From contig OZ257156.1 in NCBI GenBank assembly GCA_965279375.1, positions 4,608,001 through 4,672,000 on the forward strand: 64,000 nt of DNA, given 5' to 3'. Under the pieces are notes generated by a model. It was given only the letters and a program-made list of their open reading frames with translations, did no database searches and was not told the origin of the DNA. Shown in pieces: positions 21,717 through 34,820 of the stretch; within the stretch, counting starts at the first letter, position 1, and the number at the start of each line of letters is the position of its first letter. Both the position numbers and the translations under genes were made by a program. The DNA is from Gemmatimonas sp. (GTDB lineage: Bacteria > Gemmatimonadota > Gemmatimonadetes > Gemmatimonadales > Gemmatimonadaceae).

Positions 21717-22214
21717 CTACGCGAGCTCCGTCGCGATGTTCAGCGACACCAACTCGACGTCGGCTTGTCCATTGTGGATATACAATCGCGCAACGGAGGG
21801 CTGCAGTTTGAAACGACGCGGCCCAGCGGCACCGGGGTTGACCACGATGCGCCGAGCCGCCTTGGTCACCAGCTGTTGATGCGTATGCCCGTACACGATG
21901 ACCTGCGCGTTCATGTGCGCCGACACGAGCTTGGGGGGGGTCGGGCTCCCGAGTTCGTGGCCGTGCGTCACCACGATGCGCACGCCTCCGATCGTCTCCT
22001 CAATGCGTTCCACGAGATCCGGACGACCCGGCGCGTCGGTGTTCCCCCACACGGCTTGCACCGGAGCGATCGTCGCCAATTCGATCAGCACATCCGGCGG
22101 CCCGACATCGCCCGCATGAAAAATGCGCGAGACACCCTTCAGTGCCTCGAACACTTCAGGGCGCACGAGCCCGTGCGTATCGGAGATGAGTCCGATGATG
22201 ATCGCCTCGCTCAT
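21717..22214 (-). CDS. YfcE/MJ0936-family metallophosphoesterase
   Basis: SDTHG, HAGD, GNTD, THGH, GHTH, NPG motifs. Confidence 0.92.
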   Translation of the reverse strand: MSEAIIIGLISDTHGLVRPEVFEALKGVSRIFHAGDVGPPDVLIELATIAPVQAVWGNTDAPGRPDLVERIEETIGGVRIVVTHGHELGSPTPPKLVSAHMNAQVIVYGHTHQQLVTKAARRIVVNPGAAGPRRFKLQPSVARLYIHNGQADVELVSLNIATELA

Positions 22215-22831
22215 GATTCGTCAGCGCCCCAGCGCTTGCCCAACATGTGATCGACCTGCAAATGATCGAGTACGCGCGCCACGATGAAATCCACCAATTC
22301 GGCGATCGTCGTCGGCCTGTGATAAAAGCCTGGCGCGGCCGGAATGACGATCGCGCCTGCGCGCGTCACCTGCGTGAGATTTTCGAGATGGATGAGCGAC
22401 AGCGGCGTCTCACGCGGCACCAGCAACAGCGGCCGACGCTCCTTCAGCGCGACGTCGGCGGCGCGTTCCACCAACGAGCGTGACGTGCCGTGCGCGATCG
22501 CCGACACCGTTCCCATCGAGCACGGACAGATGACCATGCCGCTGCTCCGCGCCGACCCAGACGCTGGCGCTGCGCCACGATCGTTGTCGTCGAAGACCGT
22601 GACGACGCGATCGAATGCCGTCGCCCCCACGTGCTCCCGCAGTGCGCCCACATCGTCGATGCCGGACTCGGTGGACAGCAGCCGAAAGCCGTGGCTGGAG
22701 ACGATGAGCCACGTTGGCACCGCATGTTCGACGAGCTGCTGCACCAGTCGCACCGCATACGGCGCACCGGACGCGCCGGTGATCGCCACAACGACCGGGT
22801 CACGCGTGCGTCCCGTTGTCGCTCTGCTCAT
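22211..22831 (-). CDS. ubiX: Flavin prenyltransferase
   Basis: AITGASG, ASGS, PCSMGT, RAADVALKERR, RETP, PGFY. Confidence 0.93.
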   Translation of the reverse strand: MSRATTGRTRDPVVVAITGASGAPYAVRLVQQLVEHAVPTWLIVSSHGFRLLSTESGIDDVGALREHVGATAFDRVVTVFDDNDRGAAPASGSARSSGMVICPCSMGTVSAIAHGTSRSLVERAADVALKERRPLLLVPRETPLSLIHLENLTQVTRAGAIVIPAAPGFYHRPTTIAELVDFIVARVLDHLQVDHMLGKRWGADES

Positions 22832-23778
22832 GCGCCACCGCCGGCCAGCAAACGCGCCACCAGCACCACGCAGAAGAATCCGATCGAGATCAGACCGTTC
22901 ATGGTGAAGAACGCCGCGTTCAGTTTGGTCAGGTCATTGGGCTTCACCATGCGATGTTCCCACACCAGCATCGCCGCCATGCCCGTCACGCCGCTCCACA
23001 ACAACCAGCGCGCACTGTCCGGCAGCACGCCCATCGGCTGCGACGCCACGACCGCGGCGAGACAACTCACCGAAATCACATGCAAGGCACGCGATAAGCG
23101 AATCGCGTTGGGCACCCCGATCGTGGACGGAATGCTGTGCAATCCGTTCAGTCTGTCAAACTCCGCATCCTGCAATGCGTACAGAATGTCGAAGCCACCG
23201 GACCACGTCACTACCACCATGGCCAGCACGCACAGCAACCACCACGGATCACTCCACGCACCCGTGATCGCGAGGTATCCACCCACCGGCGCGATCGACA
23301 GGCCAAAGCCGAGCCAGATGTGCGACCAGCGCGTGAAGCGCTTGGTGTAGCTGTACCCCAGCACCCAGAGCAATGCGACCGGCGACAGCAGAAAGCACAG
23401 CGGATTCAGCTGCGACGCCGCGAAGACAAAGAGAATCGACGCCACCACCACCGAGCCCTTCGCCTGCGCGAGCGTCAACTTCCCTGCCGGCAGTTCGCGC
23501 ATCGCCGTGCGCGGATTGATTGCATCCACATCGCGATCCACGATGCGATTGAAGCCCATCGCGGCGAACCGTGCCGCTGTGAACGCCAGCAGTACCCACC
23601 CCACCATCGCAATGGTGATGTCGTGACGCGCGCTGGCGAACGTCACCCCCACCAGCGCGAACGGCATCGCGAACACGGTGTGCGGCAGCTTCACGAAGTT
23701 GGCCAGCCGCACGAGCAGCGAGCTCCCCTCCATCAGCTGACCGTCGCGTGCGCCCTTCGGCGGAACGATGCTCGTCAT
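22828..23778 (-). CDS. UbiA-family polyprenyltransferase (MqnP-like, menaquinone futalosine pathway)
   Basis: KLPHTVFAMPFA, FNRIVDRDVD..NPRT, YSYTKRFT, FDILYALQD. Multiple TM helices. Confidence 0.9.
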   Translation of the reverse strand: MTSIVPPKGARDGQLMEGSSLLVRLANFVKLPHTVFAMPFALVGVTFASARHDITIAMVGWVLLAFTAARFAAMGFNRIVDRDVDAINPRTAMRELPAGKLTLAQAKGSVVVASILFVFAASQLNPLCFLLSPVALLWVLGYSYTKRFTRWSHIWLGFGLSIAPVGGYLAITGAWSDPWWLLCVLAMVVVTWSGGFDILYALQDAEFDRLNGLHSIPSTIGVPNAIRLSRALHVISVSCLAAVVASQPMGVLPDSARWLLWSGVTGMAAMLVWEHRMVKPNDLTKLNAAFFTMNGLISIGFFCVVLVARLLAGGGA

Positions 23779-23788
23779 CGGCGGCCGA

Positions 23789-25264
23789 TCACGGCTTGAT
23801 CCCGAGCGTCGGCCACATCGCGTCCACACGACTCTTGGTCGCGTCATCCATGTGGATCACCTTGGGCCATGCGCGCGTGAAGCCTTCTTCCGGCCACTTC
23901 CGCGTCGCATCGATGCCCATCTTGCTGCCGTACGTGAACGCGCGACTGGCATGATCGAGCACATCCACCGGGCCCATCGTGAATCGCACGTCACGCTCCG
24001 GGTCCATGTTGTTGAGCGCCACCCACCACGCTTCCACCGGATTGCGCACGTTCACTTCCTTGTCCACCACCACCAGCACCTTGGCCAGCGACATCAACCC
24101 CTGCCCCCACAACGCGTGCATCACCTTGTCGGCGTGCCCGGGATACTTCTTGTCGATGGACACGAACACGAGGTTGTGAAACCCTCCCTCGGCGGGCATG
24201 TGGTAGTCCTCCACCTCGGGCGTCGTCAGCTTGAGCAGCGGGAGGAAGATGCGCTCGGTCGCATGACCGAGATAGAAATCCTCCATCGGCGGACGTCCGA
24301 CAATTGTCGTCGCGTAGATCGGAGTGCGACGCATGGTTACCGCCGTCACGTGCACCTTGGGATACAGATCCGCTTCGGAGTAGAAGCCGGTGTGGTCGCC
24401 GAACGGCCCCTCCACCACCAGCGCTTCCGCGGGGTCGATGTACCCTTCGATCACGAACTCTGCGTCGGCCGGCACTTCAAGATCACAGGTGACGGCCTTG
24501 GCCAGTCGCACCGGATCACGGCGCAGGAAACCCGCAAACAGAAACTCGTCGATATTCGGCGGCAACGGCGCTGACGCCGAATACATGCTCGCCGGGTCGG
24601 CACCCACCGCGATGCACACGGGCATCTTCTCGCCGCGTTCGGCCATCTGCCGCATGTGCTCCGCGCCCGTCTTGTGGCGCTGCCAGTGCATGGCGACGCT
24701 GCGCTTGTCGAGTTGCTGCACACGGTACATGCCCACGTTGCGAATGCCACGCACCGGATCCTTCGAGATGACCATCGTCAGCGTCACATAGGGCCCGCCG
24801 TCCTCCGGCCAACAGGTGAGCACGGGGATCTTGTCGAGATCGATCTCGTCGCCCTGCCAGACGATCTCCTGGCATGCCGGCGTGCCTGACTTCACGCGCG
24901 GCGGAAACTTCGACACCTCGAGCAATCGCGGCAGCAGCGACAACTTGCCGAGGAAACCCTCAGGCACCTTGAGGTCGAGCAGCTGCGTGATGCGGTCACC
25001 GATCTTGTCCATGTCATCGACGCCGAGTGCCATCGACATGCGGCGCATCGAGCCGAAGAGATTGATGGCGACCGGATAGGCCGACCGCGTGCCGTCGCGC
25101 AGGATCACGTGCTCGAAGAGCAGTGCCTTGCCGCCCCCAGGCATCTTGGAGACGCGATCGGCGATTTCGGTGAGTTCGAGATGCACGCGCACCGGCTGCG
25201 TGATGCGCTGCAGTTCGCCGGCGCGATCGATCGCCGCGATGAAGTCGGACAGAGTATCTAGCAT
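23789..25264 (-). CDS. ubiD: UbiD-family menaquinone biosynthesis decarboxylase (MqnL-like)
   Basis: RNVGMYR, MHWQRHK, EGPFGDHTGFY, GRPPMED, KMGIDAT. Confidence 0.9.
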   Translation of the reverse strand: MLDTLSDFIAAIDRAGELQRITQPVRVHLELTEIADRVSKMPGGGKALLFEHVILRDGTRSAYPVAINLFGSMRRMSMALGVDDMDKIGDRITQLLDLKVPEGFLGKLSLLPRLLEVSKFPPRVKSGTPACQEIVWQGDEIDLDKIPVLTCWPEDGGPYVTLTMVISKDPVRGIRNVGMYRVQQLDKRSVAMHWQRHKTGAEHMRQMAERGEKMPVCIAVGADPASMYSASAPLPPNIDEFLFAGFLRRDPVRLAKAVTCDLEVPADAEFVIEGYIDPAEALVVEGPFGDHTGFYSEADLYPKVHVTAVTMRRTPIYATTIVGRPPMEDFYLGHATERIFLPLLKLTTPEVEDYHMPAEGGFHNLVFVSIDKKYPGHADKVMHALWGQGLMSLAKVLVVVDKEVNVRNPVEAWWVALNNMDPERDVRFTMGPVDVLDHASRAFTYGSKMGIDATRKWPEEGFTRAWPKVIHMDDATKSRVDAMWPTLGIKP

Positions 25265-26061
25265 CAGGAAACAACGCCTGTGTGGATCGCTGCGATCCCG
25301 AACGTCAGGCGTTCCCAGGTCACCGTGGCGAAACCAGCGTCGCGCATCTGCTGCGCGAGACGCTCTTCGGTGGGGAACTGCGCGACCGACATTGGAAGGT
25401 AGGTGTAAGCGGAGCGATGGCCGCTCACCAGACGCCCGATGAACGGCAGCACATGATGGAAGTATGCCTGATAGGCAACCCGCACAAGCGCGACCGGTGG
25501 CGTGGAAAATTCGAGGATGATGAAGCGAGCGCCGGGCTTGAGCACGCGGCGCACTTCGCGCAGCCCTGCCCCAAGATCGGCGACGTTTCGGATGCCGAAG
25601 GCGACAATGGCGCCATCCATGCTGGCGCTCGCGAAGGGCAGCTGCAGCGCATCAGCACCCACGGGCGCGAGCACCTTACGCGAGGCCTTGCCGGTGCCGT
25701 GCTGCAACATGGGCACGGCAAAGTCGGCGCCCACCACAAAGCCCGAGAAGCCCGCTTGGCGTGTCAGTGTCGCCCCAATATCCAGCGTGCCGGCGCACAG
25801 ATCCAGGTAGGTGCCCTGAGGGCGGCTCGTCCAGGCCAGGGCCCGCAGAGCTCGACGTCGCCACGCCTTGTCGATGTTCATCGACAGCACATGGTTCAGC
25901 AGATCGTACCGCGGCGCGATGTCGGAGAACATCTGCTGCACGTATTCGCGCTTTCCTTCGCCACGGGCGGCGCTCGCTGCGACCGAGGTTTCCGCGGCAG
26001 GGCCACGGCGACGGGGCTCAGATGGTGCGTCGAGCGTGGGTGGAAGCGGTGCAATTGCCAT
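25264..26061 (-). CDS. menG: Demethylmenaquinone/ubiquinone methyltransferase UbiE/MenG
   Basis: MFSDIAPRYDLLN, LDLCAGT, AFGIRNV, RVLKPG, LEFS. Confidence 0.9.
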   Translation of the reverse strand: MAIAPLPPTLDAPSEPRRRGPAAETSVAASAARGEGKREYVQQMFSDIAPRYDLLNHVLSMNIDKAWRRRALRALAWTSRPQGTYLDLCAGTLDIGATLTRQAGFSGFVVGADFAVPMLQHGTGKASRKVLAPVGADALQLPFASASMDGAIVAFGIRNVADLGAGLREVRRVLKPGARFIILEFSTPPVALVRVAYQAYFHHVLPFIGRLVSGHRSAYTYLPMSVAQFPTEERLAQQMRDAGFATVTWERLTFGIAAIHTGVVS

Positions 26062-28926: not shown

Positions 28927-29775
28927 TCATTTCGCGCCGCGCTGTGCAGCCGCGAGGGAGTCCTGCAGAGTGTCCATCGGCTGAGTCGCCTTCTGCTCGG
29001 ACTTCTTCTCGGACTTCTTCTTCTCAGACTTCTTGTCCTTCTTCTTCGACTTCGATGCCCCACCGAGCTTCGTGCCGAACCCGAGAGCCATTCCGACGAC
29101 GTGGAAGGTTCGGTTGTACTTCTTGGCGTAGTCCGGTCGATAGATGTAGAACAGGTCCGCCGTGCGACCTCCGCCGTAGCCGAGCTTGAGCCCGACGGTG
29201 TTGCGCCAGTTGTCGATCGGATACGCCTCACCGCGCGCAAAGTACGGCTCGCTCGAGGCGTATAGATCAAGATTGTCGCTCAGCGCGCGTTTGGCCCTGA
29301 GCCGCGTGCGATAGAGCGTCTTGCCGTTCTCCTCCTCGTCAGCGCCTTGCAGCCGATGCTGCACCAATCCGCGTAGCGACCAACTCAGCCCGACAAACTT
29401 GGTGCCGGCTTCTGCGCCCAAGCCCACGCGATTGGAGCGTTCACCATCGACGCTCGCGTACCGGTAGTTGGCCAGCAACGACACACGCTTGAGCGGACTG
29501 TACGCCAACTCTCCGCCGAGGTACGAGCCCCGATATGCCGATGCGTTGTCCTCGGTGCGCAGGCGAAAATCGAACGACGTGGAGAGCTTCTTGGGCAAGT
29601 CGACATCAAGCCCAATCGAGTACCACGCCTGCAGATCCGTCGGATCGGCGCGGCTCGTTTGCGCAGCGAGGCGGACAGGAGAGTCGACAGCGGCTAGCGA
29701 GGCAATGGCCGCCAGCAACACCGGTACGCGCCGCGGCATGAATTTACCGAGCAACGGCCTCGGAGTCGGCATCAT
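28927..29775 (-). CDS. DUF2490-like outer-membrane beta-barrel protein with Lys-rich C-terminal tail
   Basis: Signal peptide, DLQAWYSIG, alternating beta strands, YRTRLR, YASSEPY, then the tail SKSKKKDKKSEKKKSEKK. Confidence 0.7.
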   Translation of the reverse strand: MMPTPRPLLGKFMPRRVPVLLAAIASLAAVDSPVRLAAQTSRADPTDLQAWYSIGLDVDLPKKLSTSFDFRLRTEDNASAYRGSYLGGELAYSPLKRVSLLANYRYASVDGERSNRVGLGAEAGTKFVGLSWSLRGLVQHRLQGADEEENGKTLYRTRLRAKRALSDNLDLYASSEPYFARGEAYPIDNWRNTVGLKLGYGGGRTADLFYIYRPDYAKKYNRTFHVVGMALGFGTKLGGASKSKKKDKKSEKKKSEKKSEQKATQPMDTLQDSLAAAQRGAK

Positions 29776-30419
29776 GAGCCGTAGTAGAATAGGGTGAGGC
29801 GTGCGGTGTCCCTGAGCAGATCGATCTCTTCCACGTCCACGCGGTGTACGTCGAGGCCCGTGCGCGTTCGCAGGTCGCTCAACAGATCGGTGCGTACGCC
29901 GGCGTGCAGCAGCGCGACTTTGTCATACAGCACGGTCTGCGCATGCTCGCGGCGAACCACGAGGTTGCTTTCGAGCAGCGCCGTTATGAGAACGAGACCG
30001 AGACCGATGCAGCCGAGCACCAGGAGATTCGCGCTGCCGACGGCCATGATGAGTCCCAGCGCGATGACAAGGAACAGATAGGTCATGTCCTTCGCCGAAA
30101 TTCCTTCGGTGCGATAGCGCAGCATCGAGAAGACCGCGAAGAGCCCGAACGCGGCGCCCATGCTCATCTCGGCGGCGTTCATCAGGTACGTGATCAGGAA
30201 GATCACGACGTTGCACGTAAAGAACGTCAGCACGAGGCTCGCGCGCGCGTAGTGGCTGAAGTACACACCGCGTACCAGCAGCGCGACGCACGTGAGATTG
30301 ATCGCGAGTCGCGTCAGCAGGGCGCTGCTCGAGAATGTCGCGACGGGCGGGGCCATGGTCGGGAGCTCTGTCGCCGGCGCGAACGCGGCCGCCGCCGATT
30401 GCAGCAGATCAGGCAACAT
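29772..30419 (-). CDS. DUF4956 membrane protein
   Basis: GAAFGLFAVFSMLRYRT, KDMTYLF, DLRTRTGL. The start could extend to 30434. Confidence 0.85.
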   Translation of the reverse strand: MLPDLLQSAAAAFAPATELPTMAPPVATFSSSALLTRLAINLTCVALLVRGVYFSHYARASLVLTFFTCNVVIFLITYLMNAAEMSMGAAFGLFAVFSMLRYRTEGISAKDMTYLFLVIALGLIMAVGSANLLVLGCIGLGLVLITALLESNLVVRREHAQTVLYDKVALLHAGVRTDLLSDLRTRTGLDVHRVDVEEIDLLRDTARLTLFYYGS

Positions 30420-31224
30420 CACGCAACCCTCCATGCTGGGAGGATCCGGCCAGCTGCAGCGCGTCGAGCTGTCGCAGCGTGGCCCGATAGTTGTTGGTCT
30501 TCACGCCCGGCTGCAGCAGGGCCACACCTATGCAGTACTTGCTGAACGACAGCGGACGACTGTGCAGGCTTAACGCCATCGCGTGAGCCGCCGAACGACG
30601 GGCACCGCCCTGCTTCACTTCTAACACAGCGAGCGCGGGTGTCGCGGCGGACCGGTCGCCGATGCTCATGCGCAAGTCCAGATCGAGCGTCACACGTTCG
30701 ACGCGTTCCGTCTCCACGAATGTGACGCGCAGATAGTCTACATCAAGCACCGGCCGCAGCGCGTCCAATGCGATGCCACTCGGAAAGTCGAGCAACGCGG
30801 AACGCATGGCCGAGAGCGACGCTCCGACGTTCATGTGCGCATCCGCAGCGACACGAGCCTTGGTCGTGACTCCGCGGTTGTTCCGGCGCTTCAGCTCCAG
30901 AAAGCGAACCTCGGACTCTACGTAGCAGCGCAAGCGCACCTTGTGCCTCGGCACGCGTCCGGCATGATGCGCGTGATACAGTGCGAAGTCCGCCGTATCG
31001 AAGTAGCGCGTGTGGTAGCGGCAGAGGCGCCGACCTCCGACTTCCAGCACGCGATAGCTGGCCGGTAGGCCGTTGATGATCTCGAGCGCGTTGGCCAGCG
31101 TCATCACGTACTTGGTGTCCACGCGTTCCATGAGCGCCGACTCTCCGAGCTCGGCCAGCGAGATCGGCTGACGCGCGTGCGCGAGTGTACGGACGCTCTC
31201 GACCAGCGGGTGAAGTGCGGTCAT
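30409..31224 (-). CDS. VTC-domain (polyphosphate polymerase, CYTH-like) protein
   Basis: MERVDTKY, YFDT, KVRLRCY, LELK, RVTLD, LEVK, FSKYC. Confidence 0.85.
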   Translation of the reverse strand: MTALHPLVESVRTLAHARQPISLAELGESALMERVDTKYVMTLANALEIINGLPASYRVLEVGGRRLCRYHTRYFDTADFALYHAHHAGRVPRHKVRLRCYVESEVRFLELKRRNNRGVTTKARVAADAHMNVGASLSAMRSALLDFPSGIALDALRPVLDVDYLRVTFVETERVERVTLDLDLRMSIGDRSAATPALAVLEVKQGGARRSAAHAMALSLHSRPLSFSKYCIGVALLQPGVKTNNYRATLRQLDALQLAGSSQHGGLRDVA

Positions 31225-32699
31225 GGGACGTACTGCGACATCAGCGTTCGGCGCACTGCGAGGTGTGCGCGCAGCGTGGATGCGGCCGCGGTGAACGCTG
31301 CTTGATTGGCGAGTTGCGTGTAGCCAGTCTGCTCGCCGTTGACGCCGACGACGTACGGCGAGATCAGCGCGGTGTACCTGTCAACCAGTTCGTTCATCGC
31401 CGTCGTCGTGAAGACCGACTCGTTGAACGTCTTCATGTGCGCCTTGTAGCGTGCGAGGTAGACCGGATCGTCCGCGACGTAGCGCAGAAGCGGCCACGTG
31501 GCGCCGACCTCGTTCATCGACAGCGACACACCTTGCTGTCCGCCGCCACCGGGTCCAAACCCACCACCGCCTCCGGTCGCGGCCGTGATGCCTGGGCTTC
31601 CCGTCATCGACTGATTGTGATCCCACGGAATCCAGATGAGCTTTCGCGTGGGATGGTTGAAGAGGTAGTAGTTATGGGCAATCGCGCCGTAGGTGTCCCA
31701 ATTCACGATGGCGTTGTTGACCGCGAGGCGCTTGAGGAAGTGATCCATGTCGAACGTGGCCTCGAGTCCGGCGCGCCACGCAGCGGCGTTCGACGTACGC
31801 GTCGTGCTGTTGAGGGCGGCCAAGAACGACTGGACGTCGGTGTAGTTCGCGGCCGTTTCGTTGTTCTTCTTCTCGAACTGGCTCTGGACGAAAGTCTGGA
31901 AGTTGGATTCGGGTTTGTAGATGTTGCCCGAGTCGCTGCCGAACTGGTCCTTCACCATCGTGTCGTCGATGACTTCGAGCGCGGTATAGACGCCGCAGTA
32001 CTTGAGCCCCGCGCCAAAATCGATGGACACGCGATAGAACGCGCTCCGCGCAGCGTTTACGCCGGCCAGGCGGAAGATGTCGGCGGCGAGCTTCTCGCGA
32101 ATCAACGAAGGATCCGAGAAGCCGGGCGAAAACGAGAGCTCCTTGAAGCCGTGGAAGCGCTGGTCGGCGATCGCGGGGACCTTGTCTTCGAACTCGTCGA
32201 ACTGCATCCGAAAGGGCAGCTTGTACGTGCCACTGCGCCAAGATGACGAGAGCGACGAGTTTCCCTTGAGTCGCCAGCCCACGTTCTTCCACGTCTTGCC
32301 ATTGAACTTGAGCGTGACGTCGACGTAGTCGGGTTCAACCGACGGGAGACCACCGCCCGGCAGACCACCACCACCGCCCGGCGCCCCACCGCCTCCTCCT
32401 CCTGGGCCGCCAACACCGCCTGCGCCGAAGTCACTACCAAACAGCGTACGCATGTTGGTCTTCACGCTGTCCCACTGCGACGCACGCATCGTGATCTCGA
32501 TGCTGTTCACGGCCGCCTGCGGCAACACCGTGGCATAGTCTGGCGCAACGCCCTTACCGTGCGAGGCGGTGGTCCAGTCCGGGTTGTAGCTCGTCGGACT
32601 GGCTTCTGGAGAGCCGGGAGACGCCGGGTCAGCGCGGCACGCAGTCAGCAGGGCAGCTGCCGATACGAGGCATGCTCGAAGTAGCGCGGATCGTTGCAT
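31221..32699 (-). CDS. CotH-family kinase lipoprotein
   Basis: Lipobox LLTAC, VGWRLKGNSS, DPSLIRE, GVYTALE, GNIYK, NWDTY, HNYYL, WIPWDHN. Gly-rich inserts. Confidence 0.88.
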   Translation of the reverse strand: MQRSALLRACLVSAAALLTACRADPASPGSPEASPTSYNPDWTTASHGKGVAPDYATVLPQAAVNSIEITMRASQWDSVKTNMRTLFGSDFGAGGVGGPGGGGGGAPGGGGGLPGGGLPSVEPDYVDVTLKFNGKTWKNVGWRLKGNSSLSSSWRSGTYKLPFRMQFDEFEDKVPAIADQRFHGFKELSFSPGFSDPSLIREKLAADIFRLAGVNAARSAFYRVSIDFGAGLKYCGVYTALEVIDDTMVKDQFGSDSGNIYKPESNFQTFVQSQFEKKNNETAANYTDVQSFLAALNSTTRTSNAAAWRAGLEATFDMDHFLKRLAVNNAIVNWDTYGAIAHNYYLFNHPTRKLIWIPWDHNQSMTGSPGITAATGGGGGFGPGGGGQQGVSLSMNEVGATWPLLRYVADDPVYLARYKAHMKTFNESVFTTTAMNELVDRYTALISPYVVGVNGEQTGYTQLANQAAFTAAASTLRAHLAVRRTLMSQYVP

Positions 32700-32715
32700 G
32701 GGTGGCGGGGCGGGG

Positions 32716-32749
32716 GTTCGTCACGGTTCTGTTACAAAACACGTGACAT
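32716..32749 (-). promoter_or_regulatory. Pho-box/OmpR-like direct repeats upstream of the cotH-VTC operon
   Basis: Minus strand reads ATGTCAC-gtgtt-TTGTAAC-agaa-CCGTGAC. The last two heptamers are 11 bp apart, in an AT-rich patch. Confidence 0.5.
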
Positions 32750-32808
32750 TTGCCACACCCTATCGACCCCAACGGCCCCGGTTACCACGACAGGCATTGG
32801 CGCCGTTC

Positions 32809-32835
32809 GGCGCGGCGCCCGACTGGCGCCGCGCC
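32809..32835 (-). terminator. GC hairpin downstream of the Xaa-Pro peptidase gene
   Basis: Perfect 11-bp stem GGCGCGGCGCC-cgact-GGCGCCGCGCC with no clear U tract. Confidence 0.4.
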
Positions 32836-32870
32836 TTACGCGCGATCGCGGAGGCGCTCTCGCGTAAGCG

Positions 32871-34820
32871 CTATCGCGCTCCCGTGGCGGCTTTCAGCTT
32901 GGACGCGCCGCCAACCACTGGGAGTGAAAGCGACGACTTCGCGAGATCGATGGAGAGCTGCGCACCCGGAGCTGGGCGGAGCGTGAACCCCGCGTCGGTG
33001 GACAGGATCATCAGCCCCAGCTGCTGACCGGGAAGGAGCACCTGATCGTCCGACTCGAGCGGCACGGTCAGCGTGTAGAACTTTCCGGGCTCGAGCGGTG
33101 AGCCTGCACGCATGAACGTGTAGTCGCCGGTGCCGCGCAGTGATTCGTGATTCTGCGGATCCGCCCATCCACGCGTGACGACGCCCACCTGCCCTGCACT
33201 GCCGATACGCGTGGTGTCGAAGGGCAGCGTGACCAGATAGACCGAGAGGTTCACCGCCGGCTTGTTGGCCGCGAGAGTCAGCGTCACGCTCGCGCGTCCC
33301 GACAGATGGATGGAGTCGGTGAGCGCAGGCAATGCATAGAGCAACCGATTGGGCGATGCAGCGGAGAGTGCCATCATCGCCGGAGTCACCAGCCCGTCGT
33401 CGGTGAACGTTTCGATGCTCGCAGCACGCGGAGCGCTGAATCCGAGCGCACCTACGCCGCTGCCGCCTTTGCTCAGGCGCAGCGTGACGTTGGCAGAGCC
33501 GGGCACAGGATAATCCGCGAAGAACGTCGGAGCCGGCGCCGCGCCACGGCCGCCCGCGACGGGTGCCGTTGCCGTCGATTGCACGATCATCGCGCGCGGC
33601 AGTGTATCGACGCCGTTCGCCACGCCGTAGAGATAGTGCGCCCACCACTTCGCCTGGATCTCCTGCGGCGGCGGTGCGCCATGTCCGCCTTGGCTCATGT
33701 ACAGCTTCGCGGAAGGGTTCACGTTCTTGAGCGCGTCCCACATGCGGATGGTATGCTCTGGCATCACGTTCCAGTCATTGAAGCCATGCGCGAACAGCAC
33801 CGCCGCCGTGATGTTCTTGGCCTGCGGCGTCTGATCGCGGTCCGCCCAGAACTGGTTGAAATCGCCGGACTGCCGATCGGCCGATGCCGCGAAGATGCCA
33901 TCACGCCAGATGCTGTCGCAGCGCTCGCGTACGCGGCCGCTGTGCACGAAATCGTAGAGCGCGTGCACGTCCTCGCCGAGGTAGCCACCGGGAGACCGCA
34001 CCAATCCGTTCGAGCGGTAGTAGCGATACTGCGACGTGTTGGGCGAGATCGGGATGATCGCTTCAAGTCCCTTCACTCCGCTCAGTGCCGCCGCCAACGG
34101 CATGGTGCCTTCATACGACACACCAGTCATGCCGACCTTGCCACTCGACCACGCGGTGGCACTCACTTCGACGTCGCCGTCGAGGGACGTGAATCCCTTG
34201 GCTCGACCGTTCAGCCAATCGATCACGAACTTGGGCGTCGCGTTCTCTATGGAGTCACCAACCGTCGGACACCCGCTGGACAGTCCGGTCCCCGCGTTCT
34301 CCGCGGCCACCGCAGCGAACCCGCGTGCCACCCACGCTACGGGACCGGACTTGAGCCGCATGTCCTCCGTGAACGGTTTGTAGGCAGGCACTTTGCGCAG
34401 CGGGGACGGTGCGCCGAGTTCCTGCGCAACGTCCCAATTGGGTGACTCCCCATTCGTAGGGCCAATGTAGGGAGACGACAGCATGAGGCTCGGCACCTTG
34501 AGCCCCGCCGCCTCCGCCGCCCCCGGTCGCACGACTTGCACGTGGATGCGGTCAGGCTTGCCGTCTCGATCGCTGTCGAAGTTGGTGAGCACCCACACCG
34601 ACTCGCGAACGAGTTTGGTGGAGTCGGCAAATTCGGTGACGGGCTGCAGCATGCCGTCCTTCACGACCACGTCCAGCTTGCCGTTCGCGCCGATGCCAGA
34701 GACGGGTGCGACGGCGCCAGTTCCCGGCCGATTCTGCGCGAGCAGGTGCGCCGGAGTGCCCAGCGCGCCGCCCGCGATCGCCAGCGCGAAGAACGTAGAA
34801 TGCGTGATCGAAAGCTGCAT
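32871..34820 (-). CDS. Secreted Xaa-Pro dipeptidyl-peptidase (S15, CocE/NonD/PepX family)
   Basis: Signal peptide, DSDRDGKPD, GVSYEG nucleophile elbow, HGFNDWNV, GGH, VTRGWADPQN. Confidence 0.88.
   Translation of the reverse strand: MQLSITHSTFFALAIAGGALGTPAHLLAQNRPGTGAVAPVSGIGANGKLDVVVKDGMLQPVTEFADSTKLVRESVWVLTNFDSDRDGKPDRIHVQVVRPGAAEAAGLKVPSLMLSSPYIGPTNGESPNWDVAQELGAPSPLRKVPAYKPFTEDMRLKSGPVAWVARGFAAVAAENAGTGLSSGCPTVGDSIENATPKFVIDWLNGRAKGFTSLDGDVEVSATAWSSGKVGMTGVSYEGTMPLAAALSGVKGLEAIIPISPNTSQYRYYRSNGLVRSPGGYLGEDVHALYDFVHSGRVRERCDSIWRDGIFAASADRQSGDFNQFWADRDQTPQAKNITAAVLFAHGFNDWNVMPEHTIRMWDALKNVNPSAKLYMSQGGHGAPPPQEIQAKWWAHYLYGVANGVDTLPRAMIVQSTATAPVAGGRGAAPAPTFFADYPVPGSANVTLRLSKGGSGVGALGFSAPRAASIETFTDDGLVTPAMMALSAASPNRLLYALPALTDSIHLSGRASVTLTLAANKPAVNLSVYLVTLPFDTTRIGSAGQVGVVTRGWADPQNHESLRGTGDYTFMRAGSPLEPGKFYTLTVPLESDDQVLLPGQQLGLMILSTDAGFTLRPAPGAQLSIDLAKSSLSLPVVGGASKLKAATGAR

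Follow-up and report, generated by a model that had tools for sequence, protein, structure and literature searches.

A four-gene cluster of Gemmatimonas sp. and a candidate route of phosphoryl-donor supply to extracytoplasmic kinases

Organization of the gene cluster

This study concerns a cluster of four genes in a window of 64,000 nucleotides (nt) of Gemmatimonas sp. (assembly GCA_965279375.1, contig OZ257156.1, positions 4,608,001-4,672,000 of the forward strand); the window is this whole stretch, and coordinates refer to it unless a genome or locus is named. The genes lie on the minus strand and encode, in the direction of transcription, a CotH-family atypical kinase with Gly-rich linkers, predicted to be a lipoprotein (31221..32699, 492 amino acids (aa)); a VTC (triphosphate-tunnel) protein, predicted to be a cytoplasmic polyphosphate (polyP) polymerase (30409..31224, 271 aa); an inner-membrane protein of the DUF4956 family, the proposed donor conduit (29772..30419, 215 aa); and a DUF2490 protein with a signal peptide, predicted to form an outer-membrane beta-barrel (28927..29775, 282 aa). 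The junctions are tight, with a 4-nt ATGA overlap between cotH and the VTC gene, an 11-nt overlap between the VTC and DUF4956 genes and a second ATGA overlap between the DUF4956 and DUF2490 genes. The ATG of the DUF4956 gene is preceded at 8 nt by GGAGG, and an alternative start is present at 30434.

A preliminary description of this DNA had proposed four minus-strand genes between 28927 and 32699 with overlapping junctions, encoding a lipoprotein with CotH motifs, a soluble VTC-domain protein, a multi-transmembrane DUF4956 protein and a signal-peptide beta-barrel, an account that is borne out by the open reading frame positions and the protein features. Pfam hidden Markov models matched all four proteins with scores above the curated cut-offs: CotH (PF08757, E 8e-53, 180 bits versus 23.8), VTC (PF09359, E 3e-28, 99.3 bits versus 23), DUF4956 (E 5e-46) and DUF2490 (PF10677, E 7e-14, 52.4 bits versus 29.8). 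NCBIfam gave no family for any of them, apart from one chance-level match. At the N-terminus of the CotH protein, the sequence reads as a lipobox-like LTAC at residues 18-21, with Cys21 as the lipidation candidate. No hydrophobic segment was seen in the VTC protein, whereas DUF4956 contains several and the DUF2490 protein one, an N-terminal stretch at residues 19-37 followed by a conserved A38-Q39.

The VTC protein carries the residue set of yeast Vtc4

Searching the PDB with the single VTC sequence returned nothing relevant, and a 60-sequence profile of the family retrieved yeast Vtc4 as the best solved relative (3g3q, E 2e-11). Counted manually along the profile alignment to 3g3q and 8i6v, against the residue list of a cryo-electron microscopy preprint, all nine polymerase residues of Vtc4 are present in the window protein (9/9). 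K38, R97, R99, K112 and Y164 correspond to Vtc4 K200, R264, R266, K281 and Y359, and R166, E202, S228 and K229 to R361, E426, S457 and K458. According to that preprint, these nine Vtc4 residues are triphosphate and metal ligands, and the inactive Vtc2 and Vtc3 differ at K458 only. Six of the nine are invariant in 83/83 homologs, while S228 and K229 are each kept in 81/83. The intact Vtc4-type set thus supports, short of proof, the assignment of the window VTC protein as a polyP polymerase.

Other triphosphate-tunnel enzymes are hydrolases. This would suit an inward flow, in which polyP or another phospho-compound enters through the barrel and DUF4956 and is hydrolyzed by VTC, as a tunnel triphosphatase, for phosphate scavenging, as would the phosphatase genes that adjoin the long DUF4956 versions described below. 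We consider this very unlikely, as the residue set matches the polymerase Vtc4, no Pst or Pho genes occur among the recurrent neighbor families of DUF4956, and scavenging needs no kinase.

DUF4956 and its predicted association with VTC

The AlphaFold2 (AF2) model of DUF4956, with a predicted local distance difference test (pLDDT) value of 86, consists of five helices and, at the C-terminus, a small beta-alpha-beta-beta domain. From these elements, and from a study of Streptococcus intermedius (PMC12345266) in which the C-terminal domain of a DUF4956-like protein is called ACT-like, an ACT-like domain is predicted here as well. The best-conserved region is helix 3, rich in small residues and ending in RYRT, within the near-invariant motif GLFxxFSxLRYRT. 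R101 is found in 98/98 homologs, and position 103 is K/R in all. In the yeast VTC complex, basic rings lie at the cytoplasmic mouth of the channel; R101 and R103, at the presumably cytoplasmic end of helix 3, could mimic such rings in an oligomer.

The window system resembles the yeast VTC complex (Vtc4/Vtc3/Vtc1; 3g3q, 7ytj, 8i6v) in its homologous catalytic tunnel and in having a membrane partner encoded next to the VTC gene. It differs in that the VTC protein has neither an SPX domain nor a membrane segment, that its membrane partner resembles MgtC and does not match Vtc1, and that the proposed destination is the envelope and not the vacuole. Neither the Vtc1-type three-helix channel nor SPX was found among the Pfam domains of the four proteins. 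A weak Pfam match to MgtC occurs in 3/39 DUF4956 family members and not in the window protein; the best relative reaches 24.8 bits for PF02308, below the cut-off of 31.4 (E 3e-5). The family thus shares with the MgtC/SapB proteins this faint similarity and a membrane part with a small C-terminal domain, whereas the window protein has its own RYRT motif and another gene context. As sequence matches to Vtc1, Vtc3 and Vtc4 are missing and the likeness is to MgtC instead, any DUF4956 channel would be an analog of the Vtc channel. In a quick tree of the family, long branches meet, so that we read neither a donor nor a sequence of events from it, and its 'noVTC' labels, which include contig-edge cases, do not enter our counts. 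No DUF4956 relative was confirmed on viral contigs.

We predicted the complex of three DUF4956 copies with one VTC protein, which scored 0.44, compared with 0.00 for the best control. Contacts agreed between runs to at least 97%, and the partner pLDDT was at least 74. In a calibration that this job does not resemble, the mark was reached by 116/157 solved complexes and 2/215 mismatches, and passes at 0.60 or below comprised 18 of the 157 solved complexes and both passing mismatches. The prediction weakly supports docking of VTC on DUF4956.

The faint MgtC similarity is also the starting point of a different explanation, in which DUF4956 transports nothing and acts as an MgtC-like regulator that couples an extracytoplasmic kinase/phosphatase pair to cytoplasmic phosphate metabolism, any polyP remaining inside. 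MgtC is described as regulating ATP synthase and PhoR (PMC12345266 and its preprint), and the S. intermedius authors suggest that polyP is cytoplasmic (PMC12345266). Two-component genes in 11 of the metagenome loci analyzed below would also fit. This explanation leaves an exported kinase without phosphoryl donor and the barrel without a role, and we regard it as distinctly improbable.

The CotH lipoprotein and the DUF2490 barrel

The CotH lipoprotein is homologous to the Bacillus cereus spore-coat kinase CotH (phmmer against 5jd9, E 1.3e-11); the alignment includes the motifs D335, H342-N343 and WD360, which we take to be catalytic-loop and metal-binding residues. K/R145, D335 and D360 are kept in 19/19 close homologs. 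Bacillus subtilis CotH acts in the mother-cell cytoplasm, whereas the window protein is a predicted lipoprotein outside the cytoplasm, encoded in a genome that the names of homologs also place in the Gemmatimonadota. Two further CotH genes, at G000:C1:226921-228267 and L058:7533-9257, encode N-terminal export-like signals.

For the DUF2490 protein, we adopted the barrel fold from a preprint (bioRxiv 10.64898/2026.07.29.741452), which assigns the family to the outer-membrane barrels and describes in it a buried network of charges whose function is unknown. Arginines are conserved in the barrel, and the basic positions 73, 105, 116, 135, 156, 158 and 191 are K/R in 85-100% of 54 homologs. Given this buried network, the conserved basic residues may sit away from any pore. 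The window protein also has a Lys-rich C-terminal tail (28927-29050), which was considered as a polyP-binding element and rejected, since at least 7 Lys in 15 residues were found in 0/56 homologs.

Conservation of the gene neighborhood

Neighborhoods of short DUF4956 genes were counted in the best 80 of 571 metagenome matches, which are related loci, so that the counts are not independent. VTC lies directly upstream in 63/66 loci with enough upstream DNA, and DUF2490 lies downstream in 53/62. The VTC-DUF4956 pair is also present in named genomes of Chloroflexota, Bacteroidota and Actinomycetota, in agreement with the co-occurrence across phyla expected in the preliminary description. Among 14 control genomes, DUF4956, VTC and CotH were all matched in Bacteroides thetaiotaomicron, Corynebacterium glutamicum and Methanosarcina acetivorans, and CotH alone in B. 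subtilis. Two small proteins of Bacteroidota type also recur as neighbors (30 and 25 loci), as do the two-component genes mentioned above.

A search for longer proteins gave seven matches. DUF4956 is fused to DUF2490 in three of them and to CotH in two, of which one occurs on 12 contigs; the other two are an unrelated protein and a DUF4956-VTC fusion (P0010) that we discarded because it stems from a frameshift. Individual loci also vary in arrangement. The VTC-DUF4956 pair is tandemly duplicated at L002:3921-7366, where the first VTC is apparently split over two frames, and CotH directly follows VTC at L024:5812-8380, where DUF4956 was undetected in the locus. A Cthe_2159 protein stands beside VTC-DUF4956 at L004, L008, L011, L015, L018, L019, L120, L142 and L146, where CotH was undetected.

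As VTC, DUF4956 and DUF2490 form the best-conserved triad, polyP might be the final secreted product of these three proteins and serve at the surface as a polyanion that binds metals or contributes to a capsule or matrix; CotH would then be a separate, co-regulated envelope enzyme that does not consume it. The conserved basic residues of the barrel would suit this possibility, as would the PPK-independent extracellular polyP of unknown origin in a 2026 B. cereus preprint, although its authors state that there is no VTC4 homolog. It leaves unexplained the VTC-less DUF4956 copies that stand beside three kinase-fold gene types, and we consider it quite unlikely.

DUF4956 beside exported kinase folds without VTC

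Besides the window copy, the source genome has a longer DUF4956-like gene (C1:417720-418799) in whose vicinity no VTC gene lies. The next gene downstream encodes a 416-aa protein that begins with a signal-peptide-like segment and belongs to no Pfam family, and a PF01663 phosphatase gene is divergent from the pair. The locus (L057:6467-10427, identical to G000:C1:416466-420426) is outside the window, and its arrangement is common in the order. The AF2 model of the 416-aa protein (pLDDT 91) finds B. cereus CotH as its best Foldseek match (5jd9, E 2.3e-9, template-modeling score 0.61, 12% identity), with PI3K/PI4K and Fam20 kinases ranking behind CotH. By sequence, BLASTP showed no link of this family to CotH, hhalign gave a probability of 0.4%, and its profile had 0 matches in the PDB; an ESM Atlas lead connects it at 0.97 to a cluster with 17% CotH. 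The assignment of this Pfam-less family, which has at least 2,036 homologs, to the CotH fold is therefore a prediction based on the structural model and the Atlas lead, the sequence comparisons being silent.

Members of the Pfam-less kinase family occur in 35/61 genomes and adjoin a long DUF4956 gene in 30/35. In a phylum-wide draw, DUF4956 lies within 1.5 kilobases (kb) of 17/30 best kinase loci, in either order, and neither VTC nor DUF2490 was found within 1.5 kb of any of the 30. Four other long DUF4956 copies (L068, L069, L072 and L074) adjoin a kinase-motif/Omp85-type protein and a metallophosphoesterase-like gene, three of them with an SdiA-regulated propeller. As a kinase, the Omp85-fused domain is a lead only: Atlas connects it at 0.79-0.81 to CotH, HipA and Fam20C clusters, while hhalign gave a probability of 0.4% and the PDB 0 matches. 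One long copy lies two genes from a CYTH-like/PPK1 fusion; the run at L070:2011-7203 holds a long DUF4956 gene together with genes for a Ser/Thr kinase and for a PPK1 that starts with a CYTH-like segment. No kinase- or PPK1-type neighbor was seen for two long copies.

VTC is thus the tightest partner of short DUF4956, and the theme that recurs across the family is DUF4956 beside an exported kinase fold. From the long pair, mostly found in genomes with no VTC match (26/30), it follows that DUF4956 occurs together with exported kinase folds whether VTC is present or not, and that the donor need not be VTC-made polyP.

Genomic setting and distribution in the lineage

Upstream of cotH, a leader of 171 nt (32700..32870, minus strand) separates the cluster from a PepX-like S15 peptidase gene (32871-34820), which is missing at this position in 8 relatives and showed no link to the module. 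A scan of the leader gave 0 sigma-70-like promoter sites; in the same scan, 4 terminator-like sites were observed versus 3.1 expected by chance. Downstream, a SAM-hydroxide adenosyltransferase gene begins 12 nt after the DUF2490 gene; it is a conserved resident outside the module. No pel operon was seen among the flanks, which comprise the PepX, MATE and SAM-hydroxide adenosyltransferase genes. Elsewhere in the window (22211-26061), UbiX-like, UbiA-like, UbiD-like and methyltransferase genes read as an apparently ordinary quinone-synthesis cluster.

DNA comparison with 30 relatives gave no match spanning the module, only chance-level fragments, compared with wide matches for the flanking SAM-hydroxide adenosyltransferase gene. 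The MATE gene is at most 0.8 kb from that gene in 6/8 relatives examined and about 6 kb away in the window, and in 0/8 does the module or the PepX gene lie between the two. VTC is present in 5/61 genomes, the source genome included. Because the module is unmatched in the DNA of relatives and missing between these two genes in 8/8, and VTC is so rare, we interpret the module as a patchy insertion in this lineage. Horizontal acquisition rests on this patchy presence and on synteny, and has no support from base composition: the GC content at third codon positions of the module (0.77-0.83) resembles that of the flanks.

Relation to published work

The three-gene core is already published. In bioRxiv 10.1101/768473, DUF4956 is noted together with cotH and a gene for a polyphosphate polymerase next to pel operons of Gram-positive bacteria, and the CotH, VTC-like and DUF4956 genes of S. 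intermedius are SIR_1594, SIR_1593 and SIR_1592 (PMC12345266). The window cluster is a diderm variant of that trio: it keeps the three genes contiguous, lacks a neighboring pel operon, adds the DUF2490 outer-membrane barrel, and has a CotH that lacks FN3 and is predicted to be a lipoprotein. The pair of long DUF4956 and Pfam-less CotH fold is an addition of this analysis. The authors of PMC12345266 did not find the trio beyond pel loci, a restriction that the loci described here contradict. Two other papers (PMC10434189 and PMC13454231) mention DUF4956 in expression tables only.

Deletion mutants of the S. intermedius CotH, VTC-like and MgtC/DUF4956-like genes were made, and those of the MgtC/DUF4956-like and CotH genes each aggregated more than 50% less in sputum medium (PMC12345266). 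The statement in the preliminary description that such a module lacks experimental characterization is thus to be corrected as regards genetics; as regards enzymology it stands, none being reported in the accessible passages of PMC12345266. In the literature searched, mostly without subscription papers, we found neither biochemical work on a VTC protein of bacteria nor a suggestion that DUF4956 mediates export.

Proposed donor supply and its alternatives

We offer as a possible, still tentative reading that the operon is a phosphoryl-donor supply line, in which DUF4956 would export a donor, here probably VTC-made polyP, for CotH. Docked from the cytoplasmic side on a DUF4956 oligomer, the VTC protein would polymerize polyP from ATP, and DUF4956 would pass the polymer out of the cytoplasm. 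With this polymer as donor, the CotH lipoprotein would phosphorylate a target in the envelope, while the DUF2490 barrel would likely carry the polyanion across the outer membrane. In the VTC-less versions, the same conduit may be fed by PPK1-made polyP or by ATP. Because a kinase outside the cytoplasm needs a donor, DUF4956 as its deliverer is the simplest reading of all versions. The DUF4956-CotH and DUF4956-DUF2490 fusions, the joint occurrence of DUF4956, VTC and CotH in three control genomes with CotH alone in B. subtilis, and the reduced aggregation of the S. intermedius DUF4956-like and CotH mutants also speak in its favor. The preliminary description had likewise seen a trans-envelope polyP system here; the co-occurrence, intact tunnel, weakly predicted docking and barrel arginines agree with it, whereas the missing sequence match to the yeast channel, the dispensability of VTC in related loci and the incomplete presence of CotH call for amendment. 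More broadly, DUF4956 might be a general inner-membrane exporter of phosphoryl donor for bacterial and archaeal extracytoplasmic kinases, whether Pfam CotH, Pfam-less CotH-fold or kinase-Omp85 proteins. The VTC form would then be a prokaryotic polyP synthase-translocase that arrived at the yeast design through a channel of MgtC type, unrelated to the yeast one, and exported polyP would replace ATP as the donor of CotH-fold enzymes. This generalization appears rather doubtful to us.

Several observations weigh against donor export as outlined. For the VTC protein, position 164, equivalent to Y359, is Tyr in 66/83 homologs and Phe in 17/83, and Y359F lowers polyP in yeast; the source genome also has two PPK1-type genes besides VTC. 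DUF4956 has no conserved basic residue within its predicted membrane helices, and its profile matched no solved structure and no Vtc1/3/4 chain in the PDB. The DUF4956 fusions keep internal signal-like segments and may be read-through errors. As to gene context, DUF4956 lacks an adjoining VTC in 3/66 metagenome loci. Where 4 kb of DNA flank short DUF4956 on each side, CotH is present in only 13/24 loci, and 9 loci have a carbohydrate-binding Cthe_2159 protein. Neither of the two additional Pfam CotH genes of the source genome adjoins DUF4956, and DUF4956 is likewise missing within 1.5 kb of 13/30 best loci of the Pfam-less kinase. A same-genus genome (86% complete) has a CotH-DUF4956-DUF2490 operon (L061:2922-5811), similar to that of the window, that must lack a VTC gene, because only about 30 nt lie between cotH and DUF4956, and 26/30 genomes with the long pair have no VTC match. 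In the accessible text of PMC12345266, the VTC-like deletion is absent among the mutants named as aggregation-reduced, and the DUF4956-like and CotH mutants shifted Pel levels oppositely. No activity of any module member was measured in the papers found.

Some of these points bear on the main rival, namely that DUF4956 exports ATP or another nucleotide for conventional CotH-fold kinases, with VTC as an accessory for donor regeneration or buffering, or for triphosphate hydrolysis. The link between DUF4956 and kinases persists without VTC, and the VTC-less loci are compatible with ATP export as much as with polyP export. A solved CotH (5jda) has Mg/AMP bound, and the missing mention of the VTC-like knockout in S. 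intermedius points the same way. Conversely, short DUF4956 is linked more tightly to VTC than to CotH, the Vtc4 polymerase residues are intact, and docking of VTC on DUF4956 is weakly predicted. We consider nucleotide export unlikely. The module itself is real and widespread, and its reading as a trans-envelope donor system is plausible.

Both the source of the phosphoryl donor of extracytoplasmic kinases and the route of polyP release from bacteria are open questions. They are experimentally accessible, since members of the DUF4956, VTC and CotH families are present in B. thetaiotaomicron and C. glutamicum and the S. intermedius deletion mutants exist. If the donor supply line proposed here is correct, it would mean that bacteria can make polyP by a non-PPK route, identify a first exporter of polyP or ATP, and give two DUF families a function.

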